Positions 3 to 37,577 are shown, numbered from the stretch's first letter. The stretch: DNA of 64,000 nucleotides from Candidatus Aenigmatarchaeota archaeon (GCA_043808015.1 JAZDFI010000007.1:930-64929), one strand, 5' to 3'. Made by a program: numbers and translations. The notes: generated by a model not told the origin, from the sequence alone.

Positions 3-611
3 GCTTTTTACCCGCTTGGTGGCGGCCAAAACAGCGATACTGGGACGCTGAACGGCATACGAGTGACCAGCGTCCAGAAGGATGCGGGCGTGGTCAAGCA
101 CTTCACCGAAGCGCCGGTCCATGAGACGCTCGTAAAAGGCGCGATAGACTGGGACAAGCGCCACACGTTCATGCGCATGCACACGGCCCAGCACCTGCTT
201 TCCGCGATAGTGCTCGACCTTTGGGGTTCGTCGACAGCAGGGAACCAGATAGAGCTCGAATATTCAAGAATCGACTTCACTCCATTAACGCCTCCGACGG
301 ACTTCATAGACGTCCTGACCACGCGCTTCAACCAGGCCGTCGATAGCGCGCTGCCGGTAAAGATATATTTCACCGGACGCGAGGAAGTGCTCAAGTCCGT
401 CGATGAGCGGCGAAGGCGGCTGTTCGCGCGACTTCCGGAAGCGATAAAGGAAATACGCATCGTCGATATCGACGGCGTCGACAAGGTCCCCTGCGGCGGC
501 ACGCATGTCGCGAACACTGGAGAAATCGGCCACATGAAGATAACGAAGGTCGACAACAAGGGCAAGGATACGATACGCGTCAGGTTCGAACTGGAAAAAC
601 CAAAAGTCTAG
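3..611 (+). CDS. alaX: AlaX-like alanyl-tRNA editing protein (5' partial; frame open to window start)
   Basis: Frame from nt 3 has no stop. Carries GGGQ.SDTG, HTAQHLL (HxxxH) and CGGTHV (CxxxH) motifs of the AlaRS editing/AlaX family. Confidence 0.75.
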   Translation, partial: AFYPLGGGQNSDTGTLNGIRVTSVQKDAGVVKHFTEAPVHETLVKGAIDWDKRHTFMRMHTAQHLLSAIVLDLWGSSTAGNQIELEYSRIDFTPLTPPTDFIDVLTTRFNQAVDSALPVKIYFTGREEVLKSVDERRRRLFARLPEAIKEIRIVDIDGVDKVPCGGTHVANTGEIGHMKITKVDNKGKDTIRVRFELEKPKV

Positions 612-627
612 AAATCCAATTCTGATT

Positions 628-1575
628 TTACTTGCCGTGCCTCATGAACTGTGCCAGCAGCGCTTCCAGCTGTATCTCAGGTGAGCCGCCCTGGTTCAGG
701 CGGAACTCGAACTCGCCTATTTTCTCGGCGAGCTGTATCTTCGTCTCCTCGGCAAGCTTCAGGTCGAATATTTCCTTGTGTATCCCTTTTATGACGTCTT
801 CGCCGGAAAGGCCCTGGGTTATGAGCAACTCGTAGAGCTTCTTCCTCGCGTCCATGAACTTGCCGGCCATCGCGCTCTCTATCATGTTGCGGATGTCCTC
901 GGGCTTCGACTGCGCCGCGGCATCGTATACGCTTTCCTTTGTGACCTTGCCCAGCGCCGAGCTCGACTGGAGAAGATTCGTCGCTTTCCTCAGGTCGCCC
1001 TCTGAAATCTCGAAAATCGCGTCAAGCGCGTCGTCATTAACCTGAATCTTCTCTCCGGCCGCGATGCGCTTCATGTATTCCTTGACGCTTTCCTTGTTGA
1101 GGCGTTTAAAACGAAAGACGGAAGTTCTCGACTGAATCGGGTCGATTATCCTGCTGGAATAATTGCATGAGAGAATGAAACGGCACGAATCGGAGAATCG
1201 TTCCATCGTTCGCCTGAGCGCCTGCTGCGCCTCCTGCGTGAGCGCGTCCGACTCGTCGAGAAACACTATTTTGAAATCAGTGCCCATCGATTTCATCCGC
1301 GCGAACTCCTTGACTCGCCCGCGCACGATGTTGATGCCCCTCTCGTCGCTAGCGTTCGTTTCCTGGAAATTACTCTTCCAGTTATTGCCGAAGAGTTCGC
1401 GTGCGAGGCATAGCGCCACCGTCGTTTTCCCGACGCCTGCCGGTCCTGCGAAAAGCATGTGAGGTATCGAGCCGCTCTTGACCCACGCCTTCAGGCGCGA
1501 GACCACGTGCTTCTGGTCCACCACGTCCTCCAGCATCTTGGGCCTGTACTTCTCCGTCCATATCTCTAGATGCAT
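628..1575 (-). CDS. rfcS: Replication factor C small subunit
   Basis: Walker A GPAGVGKTT, DEAD-like FLDESD, SRC-like SCNYSSRIIDPIQSRT. 315 aa, typical RfcS length. Confidence 0.9.
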   Translation of the reverse strand: MHLEIWTEKYRPKMLEDVVDQKHVVSRLKAWVKSGSIPHMLFAGPAGVGKTTVALCLARELFGNNWKSNFQETNASDERGINIVRGRVKEFARMKSMGTDFKIVFLDESDALTQEAQQALRRTMERFSDSCRFILSCNYSSRIIDPIQSRTSVFRFKRLNKESVKEYMKRIAAGEKIQVNDDALDAIFEISEGDLRKATNLLQSSSALGKVTKESVYDAAAQSKPEDIRNMIESAMAGKFMDARKKLYELLITQGLSGEDVIKGIHKEIFDLKLAEETKIQLAEKIGEFEFRLNQGGSPEIQLEALLAQFMRHGK

Positions 1576-7255: not shown

Positions 7256-8440
7256 TTATCCAGAAACAATCGCCTTCGTTTCCTCGTCCGTCAGCTCCAC
7301 GCCGTTGCCGGCAGATTTTGGGTGATGTTTGAGTATGATTTTGAGGAATGGCAGGTATTCGTTCCTGACGAGCCGCTGGGGACTGTGCGTATACGCCGAA
7401 AGCTTCTCGTAAATCTTGCCCATCTCGGCGTTCCTGAACCTCAGCTGCGCCAGCAGGGCGAATTTCTCCGGCGGCTTGTATTGCACGTACTGGTGCGTCC
7501 CTTCGCCGGCGAGCGATATGCCGGCGAGCATGTCGACCATGTGCGCCTTGAACCTCCAGTTCTGCTGGCGGTGGACTATCTGCCTGAAAATGTCAGCTTT
7601 TGAAAGCATATCAAGCGCATTAGCCAGCGCTTCGCCTTCGAACTCGAGCGGAATGTTGTTCTCTATCCACCAGAACAGGTCATCCGCATCTTTATCGCAC
7701 GTGTTTATCGCGTTCTTCGCCGCGGTGACGTTCTTCGAGCGGAACACGATGGGCAGGACGGAGAACACGTTCGACTCGCGTTCTCGAAACCCGAGCGCAT
7801 CGAAGTCGCGCTCGCTTATCTCCTTGCGGCCCTCGCACATCATCTGCAGGTCGTTTATCGCGGAGCGCATGTCGCCTGCGGACCAGCGCGCCAGATTCTT
7901 CAGAACATCACCATCGAGCTTAATCCCTTCATGCTCGCATATCTCGCGGAGGCGCTTCTCGACGGAACGCACGTCGACCTTGGAAAGCTTGACTATTTTC
8001 GCGCAAGAGCGCAGGGGCTGCAGCTTGTGGATGTACGGGTCATTCGCCGTCACAATGATCGGGAAGCGCGATGCCTTCACTATCCTGACTATCGCCTGTA
8101 TGCCGCCCCTATCGCCGGAAGAGAGGCTGTCGACTTCGTCGATGAGAATTATCTTGCCGCTATGGAATAGGGGCTGGTTTCTCGAGACTTCTGTCAGCGT
8201 CCTCTCGACCGCCTCGGAGTTGCGCTCGTCGCTCGCGTTGACCTGCATGAGCATCCAGCCGCGTTCGCTGGCGACTGTCTCGGCTATCAGAGTCTTTCCC
8301 GTTCCGGCCGGTCCTGCGATTAGCAGCGCTTTTCCGGGCTTCCATGAGGAAAGCCATGCCTCAGCCTCGCTGAGCGCGCTGCCCTGGCTGAGTATGTCGC
8401 TAGCGCGTTTCGGCTTGTACTTGTTCACCCACAGCTCCAT
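7256..8440 (-). CDS. rfcL: Replication factor C large subunit
   Basis: LWVNKYKPK, GPAGTGKT Walker A, ILIDEVD, long C-terminal region typical of RfcL. Confidence 0.85.
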   Translation of the reverse strand: MELWVNKYKPKRASDILSQGSALSEAEAWLSSWKPGKALLIAGPAGTGKTLIAETVASERGWMLMQVNASDERNSEAVERTLTEVSRNQPLFHSGKIILIDEVDSLSSGDRGGIQAIVRIVKASRFPIIVTANDPYIHKLQPLRSCAKIVKLSKVDVRSVEKRLREICEHEGIKLDGDVLKNLARWSAGDMRSAINDLQMMCEGRKEISERDFDALGFRERESNVFSVLPIVFRSKNVTAAKNAINTCDKDADDLFWWIENNIPLEFEGEALANALDMLSKADIFRQIVHRQQNWRFKAHMVDMLAGISLAGEGTHQYVQYKPPEKFALLAQLRFRNAEMGKIYEKLSAYTHSPQRLVRNEYLPFLKIILKHHPKSAGNGVELTDEETKAIVSG

Positions 8441-8506
8441 GCTATCGTTTTCGCCTGCGGGGTTAAAAATGTTTGGAAAAGGCAATGAATTTAAAACTAA
8501 CCACGA

Positions 8507-9304: not shown

Positions 9305-10837
9305 ATGGTCCTGAAATTCTACAACACGCTGACGCGCTCGAAGGACGAATTCGTCCCGCTGCATGCCGGTGAAGTAAAGATGTACTCGTGCGGCCCCACG
9401 GTATACGACTACCCGCACATCGGAAACCTGCGCGCGTTCGTATTCGACGACCTGCTGCGACGCTATTTGAAATACCGCGGATTCAAACTCACTCACGTCA
9501 TGAACTTAACCGACGTAGATGACAAAACGATACGCAACTCGAAAAAAGAGGGCATGACGCTCGCCGAGTTCACGGAGAAATACGCGAAAGTATTCTTCGA
9601 GAGTCTGGAGACGATGCACGTCGAGAAGGTGGAGCATTACCCTCGCGCGACGGAGCACATAAAGGAAATGGTCGAGCTGGTAAAAATCCTTCTCGACAAA
9701 GGCGTCGCTTACAAAGGGACGGATGGTTCTGTTTATTTCAACATAAGGAAATTCCCGGATTACGGGAAGCTTTCTAAGCTCGACGTGTCCGCACTGAAGC
9801 CGGGAGCGCGCGTCTGCCAGGACGAATACGCGAAAGACGAGGCGAGGGACTTCGCTTTATGGAAGGCATGGACCGAAGACGACGGCGACGTGTTCTGGGA
9901 GACGGAGATAGGCAAAGGCCGGCCGGGCTGGCACATCGAGTGCTCGGTGATGTCGTCGAAATATCTCGGAAGGACGTTCGACATCCACACGGGCGGCGTC
10001 GACCTGATGTTCCCCCACCACGAAAACGAGATCGCGCAGTCCGAGGCGGCGTATGGAAAACAGTTCGTGAACTACTGGCTGCACAACGACCACGTCATGG
10101 TCGATGGGCAGAAGATGTCGAAATCGCTCGGCAACTACCTCACGCTCAAAGATCTGCTCGCTCGCGGCCACGACCAGCGAGCGATAAGATACGTCCTGCT
10201 CTCGACGCACTACCGCTCGAAGCTCAACGTGACCGACGAGTCGCTTTGGGCGGCGAAGCAGACGGTCGAGAGATTCGATAACTTTATTGACCTGCTAAGG
10301 GAAGTGAAAGCGACTTCTCATCATGATGTCGACAAGCTCGTCCATGATGTTGAGCACAAGTTCATGGAAGCGATGGACGACGACCTTGACGTAAACACGG
10401 CGCTAGCGACGCTTTTCGACTTCATGAAGGAAATAAACAAGCTTATTGACGCGGGAAAAATCGGCAAGGCAGGAGCGGAAAAATGCATCCATGTCATGCA
10501 GCGCTTCGACAAAATACTGGGCGTGCTGAAGAAGGAAACCAGCGTCCCGAAAGAGCTGGTGGAGAAGGCGCTGAACCTTCTGGTGGAATTTCACGAGACG
10601 CTGAAGACGAAAGACGCCGAGACGGCGAAAAGGCTCGACAAGGACGTCGCGCATCTGAAAGGGAAGGAGTACGACCCGGAGAACTTCTCGGAACTGATGG
10701 CTGTCTTCGTCGACGTGCGCGAGGCGCTGCGCAAGAAGAAGGAATACGCCTTGTCGGACAAGATACGCGCGGACCTGAAAGACGCCGGCATAACGCTGGA
10801 GGACAAGGAAGGCGGCGTCAGGTGGAGAATCGCCTGA
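9305..10837 (+). CDS. cysS: Cysteinyl-tRNA synthetase
   Basis: HIGN (HIGH-type) and KMSKS motifs. Full-length class I CysRS pattern including Zn-binding Cys/His. Confidence 0.95.
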   Translation: MVLKFYNTLTRSKDEFVPLHAGEVKMYSCGPTVYDYPHIGNLRAFVFDDLLRRYLKYRGFKLTHVMNLTDVDDKTIRNSKKEGMTLAEFTEKYAKVFFESLETMHVEKVEHYPRATEHIKEMVELVKILLDKGVAYKGTDGSVYFNIRKFPDYGKLSKLDVSALKPGARVCQDEYAKDEARDFALWKAWTEDDGDVFWETEIGKGRPGWHIECSVMSSKYLGRTFDIHTGGVDLMFPHHENEIAQSEAAYGKQFVNYWLHNDHVMVDGQKMSKSLGNYLTLKDLLARGHDQRAIRYVLLSTHYRSKLNVTDESLWAAKQTVERFDNFIDLLREVKATSHHDVDKLVHDVEHKFMEAMDDDLDVNTALATLFDFMKEINKLIDAGKIGKAGAEKCIHVMQRFDKILGVLKKETSVPKELVEKALNLLVEFHETLKTKDAETAKRLDKDVAHLKGKEYDPENFSELMAVFVDVREALRKKKEYALSDKIRADLKDAGITLEDKEGGVRWRIA

Positions 10838-14698: not shown

Positions 14699-15100
14699 TC
14701 AATGCAGGAAAACCTCTTCCATTAGGCCGATTTCGCCTATGTACCTGTAAAGGTGCGTTTTTTTGTTGGGCATGACTCTTTTGAACCTGATGAGCCGACG
14801 TCTTGCTTCGCCTATCCTCCTTGGACTGCATTTTACCTCGACGCATATGACATAGCCGCTATTAGTTATTCCCACCAGGTCGAACTCGTTCTCTTCCGTG
14901 TAAAGGTTTATGCCTATTTCTTTCATCATGAAGCCGTTGTTCATGACTTCTAAAACGGCTTCCTTGAGGTAGTCTTCATGTCTGGTCATCTGCGGGTTGG
15001 AATGGTATCTTCCCTCTAACTTTTCGTATTCGCCTGCGGGGATAAGGAGGTTCATGTCCCGCCAGTAATCGAGGAGCTTTCTGCCTTTAAGCGTGCGCAT
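14699..15100 (-). CDS. PD-(D/E)xK nuclease, Hjc-like (candidate Holliday junction resolvase)
   Basis: FDLVGITNSGYVICVEVK aligns with Hjc VDLVAGNGKKYLCIEVK (D...E-x-K), followed by KTHLY like Hjc KDHLY. Longer N-terminus than canonical Hjc. Confidence 0.45.
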   Translation of the reverse strand: MRTLKGRKLLDYWRDMNLLIPAGEYEKLEGRYHSNPQMTRHEDYLKEAVLEVMNNGFMMKEIGINLYTEENEFDLVGITNSGYVICVEVKCSPRRIGEARRRLIRFKRVMPNKKTHLYRYIGEIGLMEEVFLH

Positions 15101-15199
15101 TGCAAACCTCCGGGAATACGTATGCCTCAGAAAAAGCGTGACGGCAAGCGCAATCAGGCATATGATTCCTTGGTTCTAAATTTTTTAAAACAGTATTGT

Positions 15200-15778
15200 T
15201 CACAGGTTTTTGCCGCCGAATTTGCCGAAGAAGAAATTTTCGCCGGGCTCCTTTCTTGTGCGCGGTTTGGCGAGCTTGTCTTTGATGCGCTCCTCTAACT
15301 TGTCGAAAATTTTCTTTACGTCCGCTTCGTAGCCGAGCGCGAAAACGACAACCACCCGAAAGTTCTCAGGGAATCCAGCGGCTTTCCTCGCCTTCGCCTC
15401 GTCCCATCCCGCCATCTGGTGGACCCGCAGACCGAGATGCTCCGCTTCGATGGTCAGGTTCATCACGCTCAGACCGAGGTCATACGCATAGTAAGGAAGG
15501 CTGTTGGTCTTGCATCCCTTGTCGGGATCCGCGCCCACGGCGACGATATAAGTCGCTTTCTTCGCCCAGCCGTTGCCCATCGATAGCGCATCCTCCATCG
15601 ATTTTCTCGTATTGTCGTTCCTGCCGAAAAAAACGTAGTTCCATTCCTGATTGTTGAAGCACGATGGCGCCCAGCGAGCCGCCTCGATAAGCGTGTCGAG
15701 CTTCACCTTCTCGACGTCTTTCGTTTCGTCGAAAACCAGCGGGCTTTTCCTTTTGGCTATTTCCGGCAGGATGTCCAT
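15200..15778 (-). CDS. Nitroreductase-family protein
   Basis: RWAPSCFNNQEW and overall nitroreductase fold pattern. Confidence 0.7.
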   Translation of the reverse strand: MDILPEIAKRKSPLVFDETKDVEKVKLDTLIEAARWAPSCFNNQEWNYVFFGRNDNTRKSMEDALSMGNGWAKKATYIVAVGADPDKGCKTNSLPYYAYDLGLSVMNLTIEAEHLGLRVHQMAGWDEAKARKAAGFPENFRVVVVFALGYEADVKKIFDKLEERIKDKLAKPRTRKEPGENFFFGKFGGKNL

Positions 15779-15820: not shown

Positions 15821-16345
15821 TTATGTGCTGGGGCATTCCCCGTGGCTCCACAGGGTTATGTTATTGCTCGCGCAGGCCGAACAATCGTTTCCGTATGTTA
15901 CGCCGTTGTCTCCGCACACAGGTAAGTATTCCATTGTACATGCCTCCGCGGCTTTCTCTTCATCCGTGCAGATGTGCCTGTAAGGAGGGCATTCTCCCCT
16001 GAAATAAGTCCATTCCTCGCACGCAAAGCCGTCCTCAAAAGTGCACATGCCGCTCTGGCTGCCATCCTCGGCAGTCACGATTTCAAGCTTTCCGCCGTTG
16101 TTGATGCAGTTCACAGAAGCGGGGTTCGCTATCTGCACGCTGTCGCCATTGCTGCAGTTCTCTTCCCATGCGCGGATGCATTTCTGCTCTGCGTCGCACC
16201 AGCTGTATCCCGCCGCGATAAGGCAGCCGTGCTCGTCCTTGTCACCGCCTATTATCTGATCATTTGCCGTCACGCAGCCGGCGACACCGACGGTTATTAT
16301 TATCAGTATCATGAACAGCCCGTAAACAGGAGTTTTCCTTTCCAT
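15821..16345 (-). CDS. Secreted lipoprotein-like protein with DUF333-like and Kazal-type inhibitor domains
   Basis: Signal/TM then GC (lipobox-like). NPASVNCINNGG...CTFEDGFACEEWTYFRGEC (DUF333-like). CTMEYLPVCGDNGVTYGNDCSACASNNITLWSHGEC is a canonical Kazal C-x-PVCG-x-DG-x-TY-x-N-x-C pattern. Confidence 0.6.
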   Translation of the reverse strand: MERKTPVYGLFMILIIITVGVAGCVTANDQIIGGDKDEHGCLIAAGYSWCDAEQKCIRAWEENCSNGDSVQIANPASVNCINNGGKLEIVTAEDGSQSGMCTFEDGFACEEWTYFRGECPPYRHICTDEEKAAEACTMEYLPVCGDNGVTYGNDCSACASNNITLWSHGECPST

Positions 16346-16439
16346 AATAATAATCAGCCGAGCCGTCTTATAAACCGGCCGCTTTTTGTGCGGCAAAAAC
16401 CGAAAATCTTTTTTAAATTATGAACAACAAAACTAGTCC

Positions 16440-17363
16440 ATGAAAAACCTCACTGTCGGCGTTTTCCATGACGAGACGCTAGCCGACGAGATCGCGAAGA
16501 AAGGAACCGTCAGCGACATACGCATGTTCAACCGCAAGACAGACGATGCGATATTCACCTTTTTGCAGCCCGTGGACGACAAGCTCACAGCGAAGGCGCA
16601 GATAATGGGATGCATAGACGTCGCCGTAGTCTCGTTCGCCAGCATGACTCCTGACGTCGGCGAGACGATACTCATGCTGGACGCGATGGGAATAAAGAAA
16701 GGCATATGCATCGTGCCCGCGGGAGCCGATATCTGCCAGGCGATAAAGCTGACCAAAGACACGTCTCTGGAATCGTTCGTGGTCAAGCAGCGCAACGCGC
16801 TCGAGATAATGGCTACTCTGGAGAAGATTGACGTCGTGAGAGACGTCGCCCTGCCGACGCTGGTCACGATAGACCATTCCTTCGCAGTAAAAGGCGTCGG
16901 CGAGGTCATACTCGGTTTCGTGAAGAGAGGCGTGCTAAAAAAGCATGACAAGCTCATGCTCATGCCCGCAGGCAAAGATGTCATCGTCCGCTCGATACAG
17001 ATGCACGACAAGGATTTCGATTCTGCGGACGCGGGTTCGCGAGTCGGCCTCGCGCTCAAGGGCGCGTCCATAGACGAGCTGAGGCGAGGCGCTGTTCTTT
17101 GTGTCCCGGGAAGCGTGAAAACCGGGACCAGGGTGAAGCTGTCGTTCGAGAAGAGCAAGTTCTACGCGGAAAAGCTAGCAGAAGGGACGCTCCACGTTTC
17201 CGTGGGCATGCAGACAGTTCCCGTGAAAGTCTCTGAGATCGCTGAGAACTCGCTGGTCATAGAGGCCGAGAAGCCGCTTGCATACACGGGGAGCGACGTG
17301 TTCCTGCTGCTCGACCTGAATGCCAAGAAACTGCACCTCATCGGGAAAGGCCACGCCATCTGA
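16440..17363 (+). CDS. EF-Tu/EF-1alpha-like protein with degenerate G domain (pseudo-GTPase) and intact beta-barrel domains II/III
   Basis: N-terminus NLTVGVFHDETLADEIAKKGT replaces the GHVDHGKT P-loop. Middle region VTIDHSFAVKGVGEVILGFVKRG...DAGSRVGLALKG is the classic EF-Tu domain II. Confidence 0.55.
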   Translation: MKNLTVGVFHDETLADEIAKKGTVSDIRMFNRKTDDAIFTFLQPVDDKLTAKAQIMGCIDVAVVSFASMTPDVGETILMLDAMGIKKGICIVPAGADICQAIKLTKDTSLESFVVKQRNALEIMATLEKIDVVRDVALPTLVTIDHSFAVKGVGEVILGFVKRGVLKKHDKLMLMPAGKDVIVRSIQMHDKDFDSADAGSRVGLALKGASIDELRRGAVLCVPGSVKTGTRVKLSFEKSKFYAEKLAEGTLHVSVGMQTVPVKVSEIAENSLVIEAEKPLAYTGSDVFLLLDLNAKKLHLIGKGHAI

Positions 17364-17404: not shown

Positions 17405-17713
17405 ATGGCAGTGATTTACACGACCCGTGAAATAGATGATATAAGATACGCCATACATATGTCACTACCGTTTGAGTGCCTGAAAGCCTGCCTTGACATG
17501 ACGAACCCGGATGGCCAGAGGAAGGCATATGGCGTCTTTAATTATCTCGTCAGGCTCTCGAAAAGCGATCCTGAAACATGGGCAACACCGGAGGTCATGG
17601 AATACCGCAAGCTGCTCAAGAAATACTGGTATGATCACGAGGCTGGCAATGCCTATGCGCAAATTCGATACGCAATACACAAAAAGGCAGATGGAAGATC
17701 GGCCAAAAAATGA
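17405..17713 (+). CDS. Hypothetical protein
   Basis: 102 aa ORF, no family recognised. Confidence 0.35.
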   Translation: MAVIYTTREIDDIRYAIHMSLPFECLKACLDMTNPDGQRKAYGVFNYLVRLSKSDPETWATPEVMEYRKLLKKYWYDHEAGNAYAQIRYAIHKKADGRSAKK

Positions 17714-25172: not shown

Positions 25173-25393
25173 TGCAATTGTTCGGAGGTAGTGTTATGAG
25201 AACGTTTGAGATTTTTGGTTTAGAGGCCGTGACTGGAGACAGACCGGAGAGGCCGTTCCCGCTCAGGCCCGGAACCGGGTTCGACAAGTTCCCGGTGCAG
25301 GACGCTGACCAGCTGTTATATACTATTGCAGCTAGCGCGTCCACTGCGTTTAATGATGTTTCAGGCATTCAGGGAATGCCTTATGGAGGGTGA
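25169..25393 (+). CDS. Small protein (74 aa) ending in Gly-Gly, translationally coupled between the wHTH gene and cdc48
   Basis: ATGA overlap with upstream stop. SD-like aggagaagagag. Its stop lies 5 nt before the cdc48 ATG. C-terminus ...GMPYGG*. Confidence 0.4.
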   Translation: MMQLFGGSVMRTFEIFGLEAVTGDRPERPFPLRPGTGFDKFPVQDADQLLYTIAASASTAFNDVSGIQGMPYGG

Positions 25394-25398
25394 TTTTC

Positions 25399-27822
25399 AT
25401 GGCAGAGAAAGACATATCGTTGAGAGTGGGAGAGCTGACTGACAGGAGCGAATCCGGCATGAGTATGGTAAGGCTGGAATCCAAGATGATGACCGAGCTC
25501 GGCATACGCGAGGGCGACGTCATCGAGCTCCAGGGCAAGAAGAAGACCGGAGCTATCGCCGTGCGCGCGTATCCGGCAGACATCGGACTGGGACTCGTGC
25601 GCATGGACGGCATAACCAGAACGAACATCGGCGTCGGCGTGGGAGAAACGGTCAAAATCGCGAAAGCGGACGTCAAAGAGGCGAAGAAAGTCGTCATCGC
25701 GCCAGCGCAGAAAGACGAAGTGCTGGAAATATCACAGGGCGTCGCCGACCTGCTCAGGCAGAACCTTATGGGCAGGCCGCTGATGAAAGGCGACGTGATA
25801 TCGCCGTCTCCCGCATCGAGAGGCAGGCCGAGGCAGCAGCAATCATTCGGCAACGACGACATGGATCCTTTTTTCGACATTTTCAGGAGCATGGGCATAA
25901 ACATCCAGGGAGGCGACTTCACGCCTTTCATCCCCATGCAGAGCGAGACGCGTTTGGCGATAGTTGCGACGCAGCCGGAGGGCAGCATAGTCAAGATAGC
26001 TCCGACGACGCAGATAGAGCTGCGCAAGGAAGCGGTTGATATCGACGCAGCTGGCAGGGTACCTACGATCACGTACGAGGACATAGGCGGCCTGCACGAC
26101 ATGCTGGTCAAGATAAGGGAAATGGTCGAGCTGCCGCTGCGCCATCCGGAGCTTTTCGTACGCCTGGGCATCGACCCGCCGAAAGGCGTTTTGCTCTACG
26201 GCCCGCCGGGAACCGGTAAAACATTGCTGGCGAAAGCCGTCGCTAACGAAAGCGGCGCGAACTTCTACTCCATCGCCGGTCCGGAAATAATGAGCAAGTG
26301 GTACGGCCAGACGGAAGAGAACCTGCGCAAGCTTTTCGAGGAAGCGCAGAAAAACGCGCCGTCGATAGTTTTCATAGACGAGATTGACGCCATAGCTCCT
26401 AAGAGGGAAGATGTGACAGGCGAGGTGGAGAAGCGTACGGTATCGCAACTGCTTGCGCTCATGGACGGCCTGAAGGCGCGCGGAAAAGTCATAGTCATCG
26501 CCGCGACCAACATGCCCAATTCGCTCGACCCCGCCCTCAGGAGGCCCGGGCGTTTCGACCGTGAAATCGAGATCGGAGTTCCGGACACAAGAGGACGCAA
26601 GGAAATTCTGCAAATACACACGAGAAACATGCCGCTCGAGCCCGACGTAGACCTGGACTTCCTTGCAGGCAGGACATACGGCTTTGTCGGCGCCGATTTG
26701 GAAGCGCTCGCCAAGGAAGCGGCTATGTCCGCGCTGAAGCGCCTTCTCCCCCAGATAACCTGGAGGAAAGAGGAGGAAATCCCGCAGGACGTGCTCAAGA
26801 AGCTGAAGGTCGGCAAGAAGGATTTCGATAACGGCCTTAAGATGGTCGAGCCGTCCGGCATGCGCGAAGTGATGATAGAGATTCCCAACGTTAAATGGAA
26901 CGACATCGGAGGCCTCGAAGGAGTGAAGCAGTCGCTGAAAGAGATAATCGAGTGGCCGCTCAAAAATCCAGAGGTCTTCACGAACATCGGCGTTTCGCCG
27001 CCGAAGGGAATCCTTCTTTACGGCCCGCCGGGAACCGGTAAAACATTGCTGGCGAAAGCCGTCGCCAGCGAGAGCGGCGCGAACTTCATATCGGTGCGCG
27101 GACCCGAGGTCCTTAGCAAATGGGTCGGCGAGAGCGAGAAGCACATACGCGAGATATTCAAGAGGGCGAAACAGGTCGCGCCGAGCATCATCTTCTTCGA
27201 CGAGATGGACGCGCTCGTGCCGCGAAGGGGGACGGACATGGGCACGCGCGTGGCAGAGAACGTGGTGTCGCAGATCCTCACCCACATGTCCGGCGTGGAA
27301 GAGATGCACAACGTCGTAGTCATCGGTGCGACGAACAGGCCGGACATACTCGACCCCGCGCTGCTGCGGCCAGGCCGCTTCGACAGGCAGGTGCTCGTGC
27401 CGGCTCCGGACGAGAAATCGAGGCTCGAGGTGCTCAAGATACACACCAAAAAAATGAAGATGAAGGACGTCGACCTGAAGAAGTTCGCGAAACTGACGGA
27501 CGGTTATTCAGGCGCTGACCTTGAGGCGCTCGTCAGAGAGGCCGGCATAAACGCCATAAGGGAGATAATGGCGAAGGAGAAGCCAGTCGAAACTGCTGTC
27601 AAAACGGCCAAGACCAAGAAAGCGAAAACCGAGAAGCCCGCCGATAATAAGGAAGAATACTTCGTGACCAAAAAGCATTTCGACGAGGCGCTGAAGAATT
27701 CGCGGCCTTCGATAACGCCCGACATGCTACGCTACTACGAGAAGATAATCGAGAGCTTCAGGAGCAGGGGCATGGAGATGAAGAAAGGCAGCAAAAAAGA
27801 GGACACCGACTATCTCGAGTAG
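25399..27822 (+). CDS. cdc48: Cdc48/VCP-like AAA+ ATPase (two AAA domains)
   Basis: N-domain plus two Walker A sites ([15 protein letters not shown] x2), Walker B DEIDA/DEMDA, SRH regions. Start at ATG 25399 (track 25390 is GTG). Confidence 0.95.
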
Positions 27823-28729: not shown

Positions 28730-29107
28730 TTAAGCCTGAACGGCGTGTCCTTCAAGCTTCCTTTTTATGTCGTCGACGAGCTTCTTCGAGTCTCCCACCT
28801 CTTCGATGGCGATGCTCGAGGTGCCGACTTCAAGGCCCGCGGCCTTGCCAAGTTCGAGTTTAGAAGGCACTTCAACGCAAAGAACTTTCTTCTCGTTGCA
28901 AATCACGGGAAGGTGCATTACGACTTCTTCTGGCGTCACATCCGTCGCGAGTATGACCATCTTGGCCATGCCGCGCTCTATGCACTTTGTCGTCTCATTG
29001 ACGCCTTTTCTCAGTTTGCCCGTGCTGCTTGCAGCTTCTATCGCTTCGTAAATCTTGTCCGTAAGATCCTTGGATATCTCGATTTTCACGAATTTTGCCA
29101 TATTCAT
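28730..29107 (-). CDS. rpl7ae: Ribosomal protein L7Ae (K-turn binding)
   Basis: GKLRKGVNETTKCIERGMAKMVILATDVTPEEVVMHLPVICNEKKV is the L7Ae/L30e/Nhp2 core. Start may be 29101 (MAKF). Confidence 0.9.
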   Translation of the reverse strand: MNMAKFVKIEISKDLTDKIYEAIEAASSTGKLRKGVNETTKCIERGMAKMVILATDVTPEEVVMHLPVICNEKKVLCVEVPSKLELGKAAGLEVGTSSIAIEEVGDSKKLVDDIKRKLEGHAVQA

Positions 29108-29287
29108 CCCTCCTCGCTGCCCGCTTTCTTCGACAGACGGCTTGGATTTAAGTCCCAGGCCGTCATACGCCAGCGAACAACTCAGTCATATATTAATACA
29201 CTAATTAATGCTGTATTGTATTTAAATATATCGCCCTACAATTATTGTAAATCACCGGTTAGCGTTACCGGACCAGAGAGGATAAAT

Positions 29288-29473
29288 ATGAAAAGCGAAA
29301 CCAGCGCGGATTCAATGAAATGCTCAAGCTGCGGCGTCAGGATAGAGAACCAGAAGAACTGGGTCCAGTTCGAGTGCCCCGGCTGCGGCAAGGCGAAGAT
29401 AATAAGGTGCGAGAAGTGCAGGAGCCTCATGAACGTTTACGAGTGCTCGAACTGCAGTTTCAGGGGCCCTTAA
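29288..29473 (+). CDS. Zinc-ribbon protein (61 aa), conserved partner of EF-1beta
   Basis: Three CxxC pairs (CSSCG, CPGCG, CEKC...CSNC). GAGG SD 6 nt upstream. Confidence 0.6.
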   Translation: MKSETSADSMKCSSCGVRIENQKNWVQFECPGCGKAKIIRCEKCRSLMNVYECSNCSFRGP

Positions 29474-36213: not shown

Positions 36214-36358
36214 TGCCCCGGCCGGGATTTGAACCCGGGTCACCGGCTTTCTTCGTGAAGTCATTGTCTCGCATGGGTCATCCAGCGAAACTCTTACCTT
36301 TCGAGACTTCGAAAAGCACCCGAAAGGCCGGTATCCTTGGCCACTAGACTACCGGGGC
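36214..36358 (-). tRNA. tRNA-Glu(UUC) with about 72-nt intron after position 37
   Basis: Acceptor GCCCCGG/CCGGGGC+A, T-arm CCGGG-UUCAAAU-CCCGG, anticodon stem CCGGC/GCCGG, loop CUUUCG|intron|A. Confidence 0.75.
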
Positions 36359-36444: not shown

Positions 36445-36517
36445 ATGGGTCCAGCCGGACTCGAACCAGCGATCTTCTGCACGTCAAGCAGACGTCATAG
36501 CCACTAGACCATGGACC
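36445..36517 (-). tRNA. tRNA-Val(GAC), no intron
   Basis: 73 nt cloverleaf: acceptor GGGUCCA/UGGACCC+A, anticodon arm UCUGC-UUGACGU-GCAGA, T-arm GCUGG-UUCGAGU-CCGGC. Confidence 0.8.
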
Positions 36518-36608
36518 CGTGACCAGCGAAGGACGCAGGCAAGCCCGCGTCGAAATGCCGCCGGTTTACAACATATTATTCCAATGCGTTTTTATAAATT
36601 CGGCGTGA

Positions 36609-36680
36609 TGGGCCGGAAGGGAATTGAACCCTTGATCTTCGCCGTGTGAAGGCGACGTCATGCCACTAGACCACCAGCCC
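36609..36680 (-). tRNA. tRNA-Val(CAC), no intron
   Basis: 72 nt: acceptor GGGCUGG/CCGGCCC+A, anticodon arm UCGCC-UUCACAC-GGCGA, T-arm AAGGG-UUCAAUU-CCCUU. Confidence 0.8.
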
Positions 36681-37455: not shown

Positions 37456-37577
37456 CGCTGGGAGCAGGATTTGAACCTGCGCGGGCAGAAGCCCAATGGA
37501 TTTCACGCAATCACAGGCTTTCGCCTCTTCTTATCCATTCGAGTCCATCGCCTTGAACCTAGCTCGGCCATCCCAGC
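37456..37577 (-). tRNA. tRNA-Ser(CGA) with about 36-nt intron in the anticodon loop
   Basis: Type II: acceptor GCUGGGA/UCCCAGC+G, D-arm GCC-GAGCUAGGUUCAAG-GCG, anticodon stem AUGGA/UCCAU with loop CUCGAA(U), variable arm GGGC-UUCU-GCCC, T-arm GCAGG-UUCAAAU-CCUGC. Confidence 0.7.

Follow-up and report, generated by a model that had tools for sequence, protein, structure and literature searches.

A complete gene for an elongation factor-like protein of 307 aa, referred to below as the query, lies on the plus strand of a 64,000-nucleotide stretch of Candidatus Aenigmatarchaeota archaeon DNA (GCA_043808015.1, JAZDFI010000007.1:930-64929; hereafter the window). The gene starts with an ATG at 16440 and ends with a stop codon at 17361-17363 (Table 1). 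An in-frame TAG at 16434-16436, two codons 5' of the ATG, means that the N terminus cannot be extended, and a P-loop hidden upstream is thereby ruled out. The gene belongs to the "divergent" branch of the aSelBL (aEF-X) proteins within the EF-Tu/SelB/aIF2-gamma group and is a member of a known family rather than a new kind of protein; the aSelBL family with the same disruption of the G domain was described in 2011 by Atkinson, Hauryliuk and Tenson (PMC3037878). A TATA-like element about 25 nt before the ATG, together with the gap of 43 bp to the divergently oriented gene at 15821..16396 (minus strand), suggests that the gene is probably transcribed from an archaeal promoter of its own into an mRNA with a short leader or none.

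The family assignment was deduced from sequence searches at several levels. More than 1,000 homologues of 305-320 aa were found at E values of 1e-3 or below, the best at 93% identity, and when the representatives of clusters formed at 50% identity were searched exhaustively, 116 clusters matched with E values of 1e-30 or below. The closest genome record (L001), a metagenome-assembled genome (MAG) from Lake Pavin sediment labelled Candidatus Aenigmatarchaeota, showed 93% protein identity with synteny kept. Further relatives at 50-58% identity were labelled Thermoplasmatota/Thermoplasmatales, Bathyarchaeia or Aenigmatarchaeota. An alignment of 141 family sequences (A2) was used for the profile, for the conservation counts given below out of 141, and as the input for AlphaFold2, while motif counts were drawn from 132 full-length cluster representatives or from 120 close matches. 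A profile search also recovered proteins labelled Methanococcus sp. CF (309 aa) and Methanomicrobiales, and Methanococcus and Methanomicrobiales lineages are among the aSelBL carriers in PMC3037878.

Against the PDB, phmmer matched 3wnb, 3wnc and 3wnd at an E value of 1.2e-32 over query residues 13-284. The next best match was at 1.2e-16, and the other EF-Tu, SelB and EF1A chains, at 1e-16 or weaker, were matched in domains II and III only. The A2 profile gave the same order, with 3wnb at 2.7e-77, the archaeal SelB (aSelB) of M. maripaludis (4ac9) at 2e-46, and EF1A and EF-Tu at about 1e-24 or weaker. The entries 3WNB-3WND and 2ELF are structures of M. mazei MM1309 (Yanagisawa et al. 2015, PMC4329189), a conservative aSelBL that is also called aEF-X and was once proposed as "EF-Pyl". 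In Pfam the sole match was GTP_EFTU_D2 (PF03144), above the gathering score (residues 154-221, E value 3.5e-15), and no match of the 307-aa protein to GTP_EFTU (PF00009) was found even at E values up to 1. The NCBIfam matches to selB, EF-1alpha and EF-Tu were partial, confined to domains II and III and far under threshold: selB (TIGR00475) scored 74.4 bits against a cut-off of 242.25 over residues 124-297 only, and EF-1alpha scored 56 bits against a cut-off of 540. By match scores, aSelBL/MM1309 is therefore nearer to the query than are aSelB, EF1A/EF-Tu and aIF2-gamma.

AlphaFold2 with A2 as input gave a model with a mean predicted local distance difference test (pLDDT) score of 97.1 and a predicted TM-score (pTM) of 0.93. 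The model consists of an alpha/beta domain I (residues 1-135) and two beta-barrels (residues ~141-221 and ~227-306). It stops with the barrel of domain III at residue 306, leaving no room for a SelB C-terminal extension, and the alignments to 3wnb and 4ac9 likewise reach the C terminus of the query. In a Foldseek search of the PDB, 3wnb was the top match with a query TM-score (TMq) of 0.88, and aSelB was second at 0.81. The model is predicted to adopt the closed, GTP-like conformation rather than the open GDP form, because TMq was about 0.8 to GTP-analogue structures of EF-Tu, aIF2-gamma and SelB (1exm, 1eft, 2c78, 6r8t) as opposed to about 0.5 to GDP-form EF-Tu (1d8t, 7vok). In MM1309, the crystals were closed with GMPPNP (a GTP analogue), with GDP and in the apo form, and switches I and II contact domains and not the nucleotide (PMC4329189).

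An initial annotation of this locus, made from the sequence alone, had described an EF-Tu-like protein in which domains II and III are intact but the P-loop is destroyed, a pseudo-GTPase of a rarely characterised kind. The open reading frame (ORF) was found at the coordinates and on the strand given there, with every string that it quoted, and both the Pfam match and the predicted fold bear out the intactness of domains II and III. The structure prediction and comparison that it had proposed as a check were run and likewise agree with an EF-Tu fold. Its placement as a paralog of EF-Tu/EF-1alpha was wrong, the lineage being that of SelB and the subfamily aSelBL, with 3wnb as the best match followed by aSelB. 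The family had also been published already, in the 2011 paper and in the report on MM1309 structure and Cys-tRNA binding (PMC4329189); a literature search for later functional work on archaeal SelB-like/EF-Pyl proteins gave nothing beyond the 2011 and 2015 papers.

The state of the GTP-binding motifs was deduced mainly from the profile alignment to 3wnb. The residues of MM1309 that touch GMPPNP are K11-S16, D46, R101/D103 and T136 (PMC4329189), and of these contacts S16 alone is conservatively matched in the query, by T13. The first Walker-A glycine of MM1309 (G8) aligns with query H10, not with G7, and the Walker-A core K11-S-G-R-T15 corresponds to a 5-residue deletion in the family of the query; the family consensus 'ltvavlgde.....elakeLGKkgt' stands opposite MM1309 'ANVAIIGTEksgrtSLAANLGKKGT'. 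Two further segments of MM1309 are insertions relative to the family profile. The first, of 9 residues (SDSTHMHAI), holds D103, the guanine-specifying aspartate of the G4-like TRSD motif, and the second, of 18 residues (LNTNKSAKNPFEGVDELK), holds the G5 residue T136. The Mg2+-binding aspartate of G3 (MM1309 D46) aligns with query Q43. In an hhalign comparison with a hand-entered sequence of E. coli EF-Tu, the tyrosine of the family motif YPEK stood opposite the catalytic His84 of EF-Tu, and in the subclade of the query the residues YP are deleted. No NKxD was found after beta-5, where the query reads ICIVPAGAD and D97 is kept in just 32 of the 141 sequences. The canonical GxxxxGK[ST] occurred in none of the 132 full-length cluster representatives, and GxxxxGR[ST] of the MM1309 type occurred in one.

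These data correct the initial annotation in detail and sustain its conclusion. Residues 7-14 do read GVFHDETL, but this is not a substitution of the G1 motif, since the Walker-A core has been deleted; the absence of NKxD was rightly noted, and the loop that carries the G4 aspartate (D103) is missing altogether. Its own caveat that the by-eye alignment could be shifted was justified, the register being off by three residues, but the shift did not hide canonical G1-G4 motifs and the case for their loss is stronger in the correct register. With no PF00009 match and with the deletions relative to MM1309, domain I lacks every canonical GTP-binding element although it is constrained (see below), and the query is predicted to be a pseudo-GTPase, as had been proposed. 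That the query both belongs to the aSelBL (aEF-X) family and has lost canonical GTP binding is considered very probable.

The same pattern has been reported for the divergent aSelBL proteins. According to PMC3037878, aSelBL have about 15 residues fewer between G1 and G2 than true aSelB, and the divergent members show a 4-5-residue deletion in the P-loop as well as a further deletion of 10-14 G-domain residues that are present in conservative aSelBL, aSelB and EF1. They also carry 'KGTxx' for RGITI and 'E/D-P' for DxPGH, and have no catalytic histidine. The query shows exactly the pattern of the divergent members. Its 'KGTxx' motif is K21-G-T-V-S, in place of G2, and the 'E/D-P' position is occupied by Q43-P44, the family having E in 44 of 141 and P in 122 of 141 sequences. 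When the profile is aligned to 4ac9, its position 19 is the first to be matched and stands opposite residue 55 of the chain, as would be consistent with about 20 additional N-terminal residues in aSelB; the stretch before it lies outside the alignment. The likeness to the divergent clade extends to the three domains, a size of ~300-320 aa, the absence of a SelB C-terminal extension, both G-domain deletions, the KGTxx and E/D-P motifs, the missing catalytic histidine, a D-H...R pocket and an unconserved gene context.

The query differs from the rest of the divergent clade by a set of subclade-specific changes. These are H10 in place of the family glycine at the first Walker-A Gly position, which gives the loop G[IV]FHD, a switch II shorter by two residues through the loss of YP, K52 for Leu, E155 for Thr and, in most members, H299 for Arg. 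The changes co-occur strictly in 13 of the 141 sequences, and G[IVL]FHD was present in 115 of 120 close matches. The arginine replaced by H299 in the query is near-invariant in the family and equivalent to R342 of MM1309. In MM1309, P51, L54 and R342 form a contact between switch II and domain III (PMC4329189), and these are the equivalents of P46, L52 and R299. Because the signature positions map to this contact, the subclade has remodelled its switch II-domain III interface as a unit, a refinement within a known family. The subclade is not singled out in PMC3037878, and most of its known members come from MAGs that carry the label Thermoplasmatota, Bathyarchaeia or Aenigmatarchaeota.

The comparison with solved relatives places these features in context. 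MM1309 is the best match in sequence and structure and shares the closed three-domain arrangement and the latch residues described below, but it is longer (350 aa versus 307 aa), is 26% identical over the structural alignment, and retains a variant P-loop (GTEKSGRT), the G4-like TRSD and the G5 threonine, all three of which are deleted in the query. MM1309 binds GTP with a dissociation constant of 0.43 uM (PMC4329189). M. maripaludis aSelB (PDB 4AC9/4ACB), the second-closest solved relative, shares the pocket Asp, His and Arg, but its G1-G5 motifs are canonical and its C-terminal domain IV serves recoding dependent on the selenocysteine insertion sequence (SECIS), and the query has neither the motifs nor this domain. 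EF-Tu and aEF1A share the overall fold, the closed GTP-form geometry, the Pfam domain II and the aligned pocket positions; at 16-19% identity, however, the query lacks their nucleotide site, catalytic histidine and 5'-phosphate contacts.

Selection on the gene was assessed against the L001 orthologue. The ratio of nonsynonymous to synonymous divergence (dN/dS) was 0.054 overall at a dS of 0.57, with values of 0.054, 0.043 and 0.068 for domains I, II and III, respectively. All three domains are under strong purifying selection, and domain I, although devoid of the motifs, is constrained to the same degree as the other two. Near-invariant positions of domain I in the family are K20, K21, G22, T23, D26, P44, K48, D60, G74, E75, D81, G88 and T108. 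Several of these fall in the KKGTVSD hairpin of residues 20-26, in which K20 is kept in 138, G22 in 107, T23 in 92 and D26 in 128 of the 141 sequences. This segment corresponds to MM1309 residues 23-29, which include the pocket residues G25, T26 and S27 and the domain I-II latch residues T26, S28 and D29 (PMC4329189).

The residues of the aminoacyl pocket include the most conserved ones of the family. In A2, F148 was invariant, L158 was kept in 140 sequences, and D145 and R201 were each kept in 139; H146 was kept in 82, the rest having mostly Gln or Asn. Query D145, H146 and R201 correspond to Asp191, His192 and Arg247 of the aSelB pocket, and hhalign placed E215, D216, F218 and N273 of EF-Tu opposite D145, H146, F148 and R201. 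To this SelB-type pocket domain I adds G22, T23 and M29. Six pocket residues of MM1309 were compared with the query, and five of them are the same, G25, T26, M32, H179 and L191 of MM1309 being G22, T23, M29, H146 and L158. Met178 is also named as an MM1309 pocket residue in PMC4329189, and the position aligned to it, occupied by Asp in MM1309 as well as in the query, was left out of the comparison. The domain I-II latch of MM1309 (T26, S28, D29, H179, R234 and R249) is represented by the family-conserved residues T23, S25, D26, H146, R201 and R216, the last of which is kept in 125 of 141 sequences. From these conserved pocket and latch residues, tRNA binding by the query is plausible. In the presence of MM1309, the half-life of Cys-tRNACys rose from 80 to 300 min, and Cys-tRNACys is the sole substrate demonstrated for any member of the family (PMC4329189).

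Taken as a whole, the reading that we favour, and with some confidence, is that the query is a nucleotide-independent, permanently closed aminoacyl-tRNA binder of the divergent aSelBL branch. In such a protein the nucleotide switch would no longer be used, and the protein would be fixed permanently in the conformation that binds aminoacyl-tRNA, with the aminoacylated 3' end of the tRNA lodged in the domain I-II cleft. The amino acid held there would probably be small or thiolate-bearing, and the ligand might be Cys-tRNA. The role of the protein could then be to shield the labile aminoacyl ester and the side chain, or to pass the tRNA on without GTP hydrolysis. For aminoacyl-tRNA binding as the function, taken by itself, the chances are put at about even.

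Several observations weigh against this reading. Binding of tRNA is proposed from conserved residues and a predicted structure, and no experiment on a divergent aSelBL was found in the literature. Since the assays of MM1309 concerned a protein that binds GTP, the Cys-tRNA result may not hold for proteins that have no nucleotide site. The closed state of the AlphaFold2 model could merely mirror the dominant state learnt for the EF-Tu fold. The residues by which EF-Tu contacts the tRNA 5'-phosphate are not conserved, K89 aligning to T50 and R288 falling in a gap (hhalign), and one of the six pocket positions compared differs, S27 of MM1309 being V24 in the query. The switch II-domain III interface of the subclade has been remodelled by the YP deletion and by the changes of L52 to K and R299 to H. 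In addition, the gene for cysteinyl-tRNA synthetase (CysRS) that lies 5.6 kb upstream does not recur generally as a neighbour, none of the 80 metagenome loci having it.

It is unlikely, although less so than the other alternatives, that the delivery or protection of aminoacyl-tRNA has been abandoned and that the protein is a regulator at the ribosomal factor site, binds uncharged or precursor tRNA during processing, or serves a protein partner. Such a role would fit the lack of conserved 5'-phosphate-binding residues, the reported conservation in aSelBL of those patches of domain II through which EF-Tu contacts 16S rRNA (PMC3037878), and the tRNA-modification (ThiI/THUMP) or disulfide-reductase genes that adjoin the gene in some related loci. 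These neighbour associations are not general, the commonest occurring in 13 of 100 loci, and without the catalytic histidine no response to the ribosomal sarcin-ricin loop would be possible. Furthermore, the most conserved residues of the family (D145, F148, L158 and R201, each in at least 139 of 141) line the aminoacyl pocket, a pattern not easily accounted for unless an aminoacyl ligand is bound. The analysis gave no evidence in favour of the regulatory role suggested in the initial annotation.

It is distinctly improbable that the protein is still a nucleotide-dependent switch in which GTP, another nucleotide or a phosphorylated ligand is bound at a non-canonical site made up of the G[IV]FHD loop and K20, K21, D60, E75, D81 and T108. 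The deletion or replacement of the MM1309 GMPPNP contacts, save for S16 to T13, argues against it, as does the restriction of H10 to the subclade, most of the family having Gly at this position. The constraint on domain I, equal to that on domains II and III and with near-invariant charged residues, and the fixation of the G[IVL]FHD loop in close relatives would be expected of such a site, and nucleotide hydrolysis by a mechanism of unknown type was explicitly left open in PMC3037878. In MM1309, however, the regions of KKGTxSD and E75, which are conserved, take part in the packing of domains and in the aminoacyl pocket instead of binding the nucleotide (PMC4329189).

The last two alternatives are refuted, with a negligible probability for each. 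A decaying, non-functional remnant of an elongation factor could be suspected from the loss of every GTPase motif and from a domain I that Pfam does not recognise, but the ORF is intact, domain I shows a dN/dS as low as that of the whole gene, full-length homologues of matching size number in the hundreds across several archaeal phyla, and the model is of high confidence. A genuine SelB, EF1A or aIF2-gamma whose canonical motifs were missed through a shifted alignment would accord with the three-residue error of register, but the correct register reveals deletions and not concealed motifs, the NCBIfam scores for selB and EF-1alpha are far below cut-off, 307 aa leave no C-terminal SelB domain, and the stop two codons 5' of the ATG closes off the N terminus.

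Two further proposals for the subclade go beyond a passive loss of the GTPase, although together they are given little credence. The fixed His-Asp pair in the former P-loop and the interface remodelled in a co-ordinated way (YP deletion, L52K, T155E and R299H) might have created a new site for a ligand, a metal or a partner by which aminoacyl-tRNA binding is gated, or the protein might be a GTP-independent carrier that delivers or shields a specific aminoacyl-tRNA. Either, if true, would represent a way of handling tRNA that has so far not been demonstrated for archaea. The aSelBL proteins are the only translational-GTPase paralogue added by archaea after their split from the eukaryotic line (PMC4342817), and the divergent branch is spread over several archaeal groups and is strongly conserved. 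To this branch the query adds a well-defined and abundant subclade from uncultured archaea. No new kind of system is revealed, but the high-confidence model predicts a permanently closed EF-Tu fold without nucleotide, which makes the holding of aminoacyl-tRNA without a GTP switch directly testable.

Table 1. Features of the aSelBL gene and of other parts of the window
Feature	Coordinates	Strand	Basis or remark
Divergent aSelBL coding sequence (SelB-like, predicted pseudo-GTPase), complete, 307 aa + stop	16440..17363	+	ORF call, homologues, PDB best match, AlphaFold2, Foldseek, dN/dS
Archaeal TATA-box-like element TTTTTAAATTA	16410..16420	+	Read from sequence, ~25 nt before ATG
Domain I (residues 1-135), G-domain-like alpha/beta fold without nucleotide motifs	16440..16844	+	AlphaFold2 secondary structure, no PF00009, deletions vs MM1309
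P-loop remnant, residues 7-13 (GVFHDET)	16458..16478	+	Profile alignment to 3wnb
aSelBL-specific, switch-I-derived beta-hairpin motif, residues 20-26 (KKGTVSD)	16497..16517	+	Conservation, MM1309 equivalence
G3/switch II remnant, residues 43-48 (QPVDDK)	16566..16583	+	Alignments; Q43 for Mg-binding Asp; 'YP' of family YPEK deleted
Domain II (residues 136-225), EF-Tu domain-2 beta-barrel with putative aminoacyl pocket and latch R216	16845..17114	+	Pfam, conservation
Domain III (residues 226-307), beta-barrel	17115..17360	+	AlphaFold2, profile alignment, conservation
Small Cys-rich protein, N-terminal hydrophobic segment, DUF333 + Kazal-type inhibitor domain	15821..16396	-	Divergent, 43 bp from aSelBL start
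102-aa ORF	17405..17713	+	42 nt downstream of aSelBL, own A/T-rich upstream element
Class-I CysRS gene	9305..10837	+	tRNA-synt_1e E 1.9e-115 + DALR_2; 5.6 kb upstream of aSelBL, same strand
RFC-like clamp-loader subunit	7256..8485	-	
Cdc48/VCP-like double AAA ATPase	25390..27822	+	
Protein with HVO_2753-like zinc finger	28745..29473	+	
Four-tRNA-gene cluster	36214..36358, 36446..36518, 36609..36680, 37456..37577	-	Rfam

The gene neighbourhood was compared between the window and 21 genome loci, and ORFs were then clustered over 100 loci (~870 kb in total); 80 metagenome loci came from metagenome contigs searched with a second family profile (A1). No conserved neighbourhood was found, in that no neighbour cluster occurred in more than 13 of the 100 loci and the most widely shared were large promiscuous families. 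Genes adjoined aSelBL on either strand about equally often, and the synteny of the window was kept only in L001. An unconserved gene context of aSelBL was reported in 2011 (PMC3037878), and the present loci agree with it. Since there is no general neighbour and no strand preference among adjoining genes, and a TATA-like element lies upstream, the gene appears to be transcribed alone, without a conserved partner gene.

The neighbours in the window encode a HAD hydrolase, a transglutaminase-like protein, a nitroreductase, the secreted DUF333 and Kazal protein, the 102-aa ORF, a flavodoxin, a PD-(D/E)XK nuclease and a beta-propeller protein. The 102-aa ORF matched no Pfam family and was found among the ~100 related loci only in L001, at 80% identity, and was for this reason ruled out as a conserved partner. 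The linkage to CysRS is of note in that Cys-tRNACys is the sole known ligand of the family, but with 0 of 80 metagenome loci having this gene it was treated as a probable coincidence. A CysRS gene was also observed in L015, a Micrarchaeota MAG (1507..98), about 740 bp upstream of aSelBL and divergent. In six Thermoplasmatales-type loci (L010, L011, L013, L014, L050 and L074), a gene for a pyridine-nucleotide disulfide oxidoreductase (~447 aa) adjoins aSelBL, divergently upstream in some and convergently downstream in others; the assignment was checked with Pfam in L010, L011 and L013. In five further loci (L002, L003, L005, L025 and L035), a ThiI/THUMP tRNA-thiolation gene lies divergently 85 bp upstream, checked with Pfam in L002. 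Both neighbours have to do with thiols or tRNA, but as partners they were set aside as confined to particular lineages and too few to carry weight.

The pairing of DUF333 with a Kazal-type domain in the protein encoded next to aSelBL is unusual for an archaeon. Farther upstream, a segment of about 886 bp (14814..15699) has no counterpart in L001, although its flanks are 84-88% identical, and represents an indel between near relatives. It spans most of the nitroreductase gene (15200..15778, minus strand) and the N-terminal part of an ORF at 14699..15100 (minus strand). The Cdc48/VCP-like, RFC-like and HVO_2753-like genes belong to an archaeal housekeeping set and are consistent with an archaeal chromosome. 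Within the cluster of four tRNA genes, ARAGORN reported just two short tRNA-Val genes (GAC and CAC), and the other two, of 145 and 122 nt, probably carry archaeal introns.

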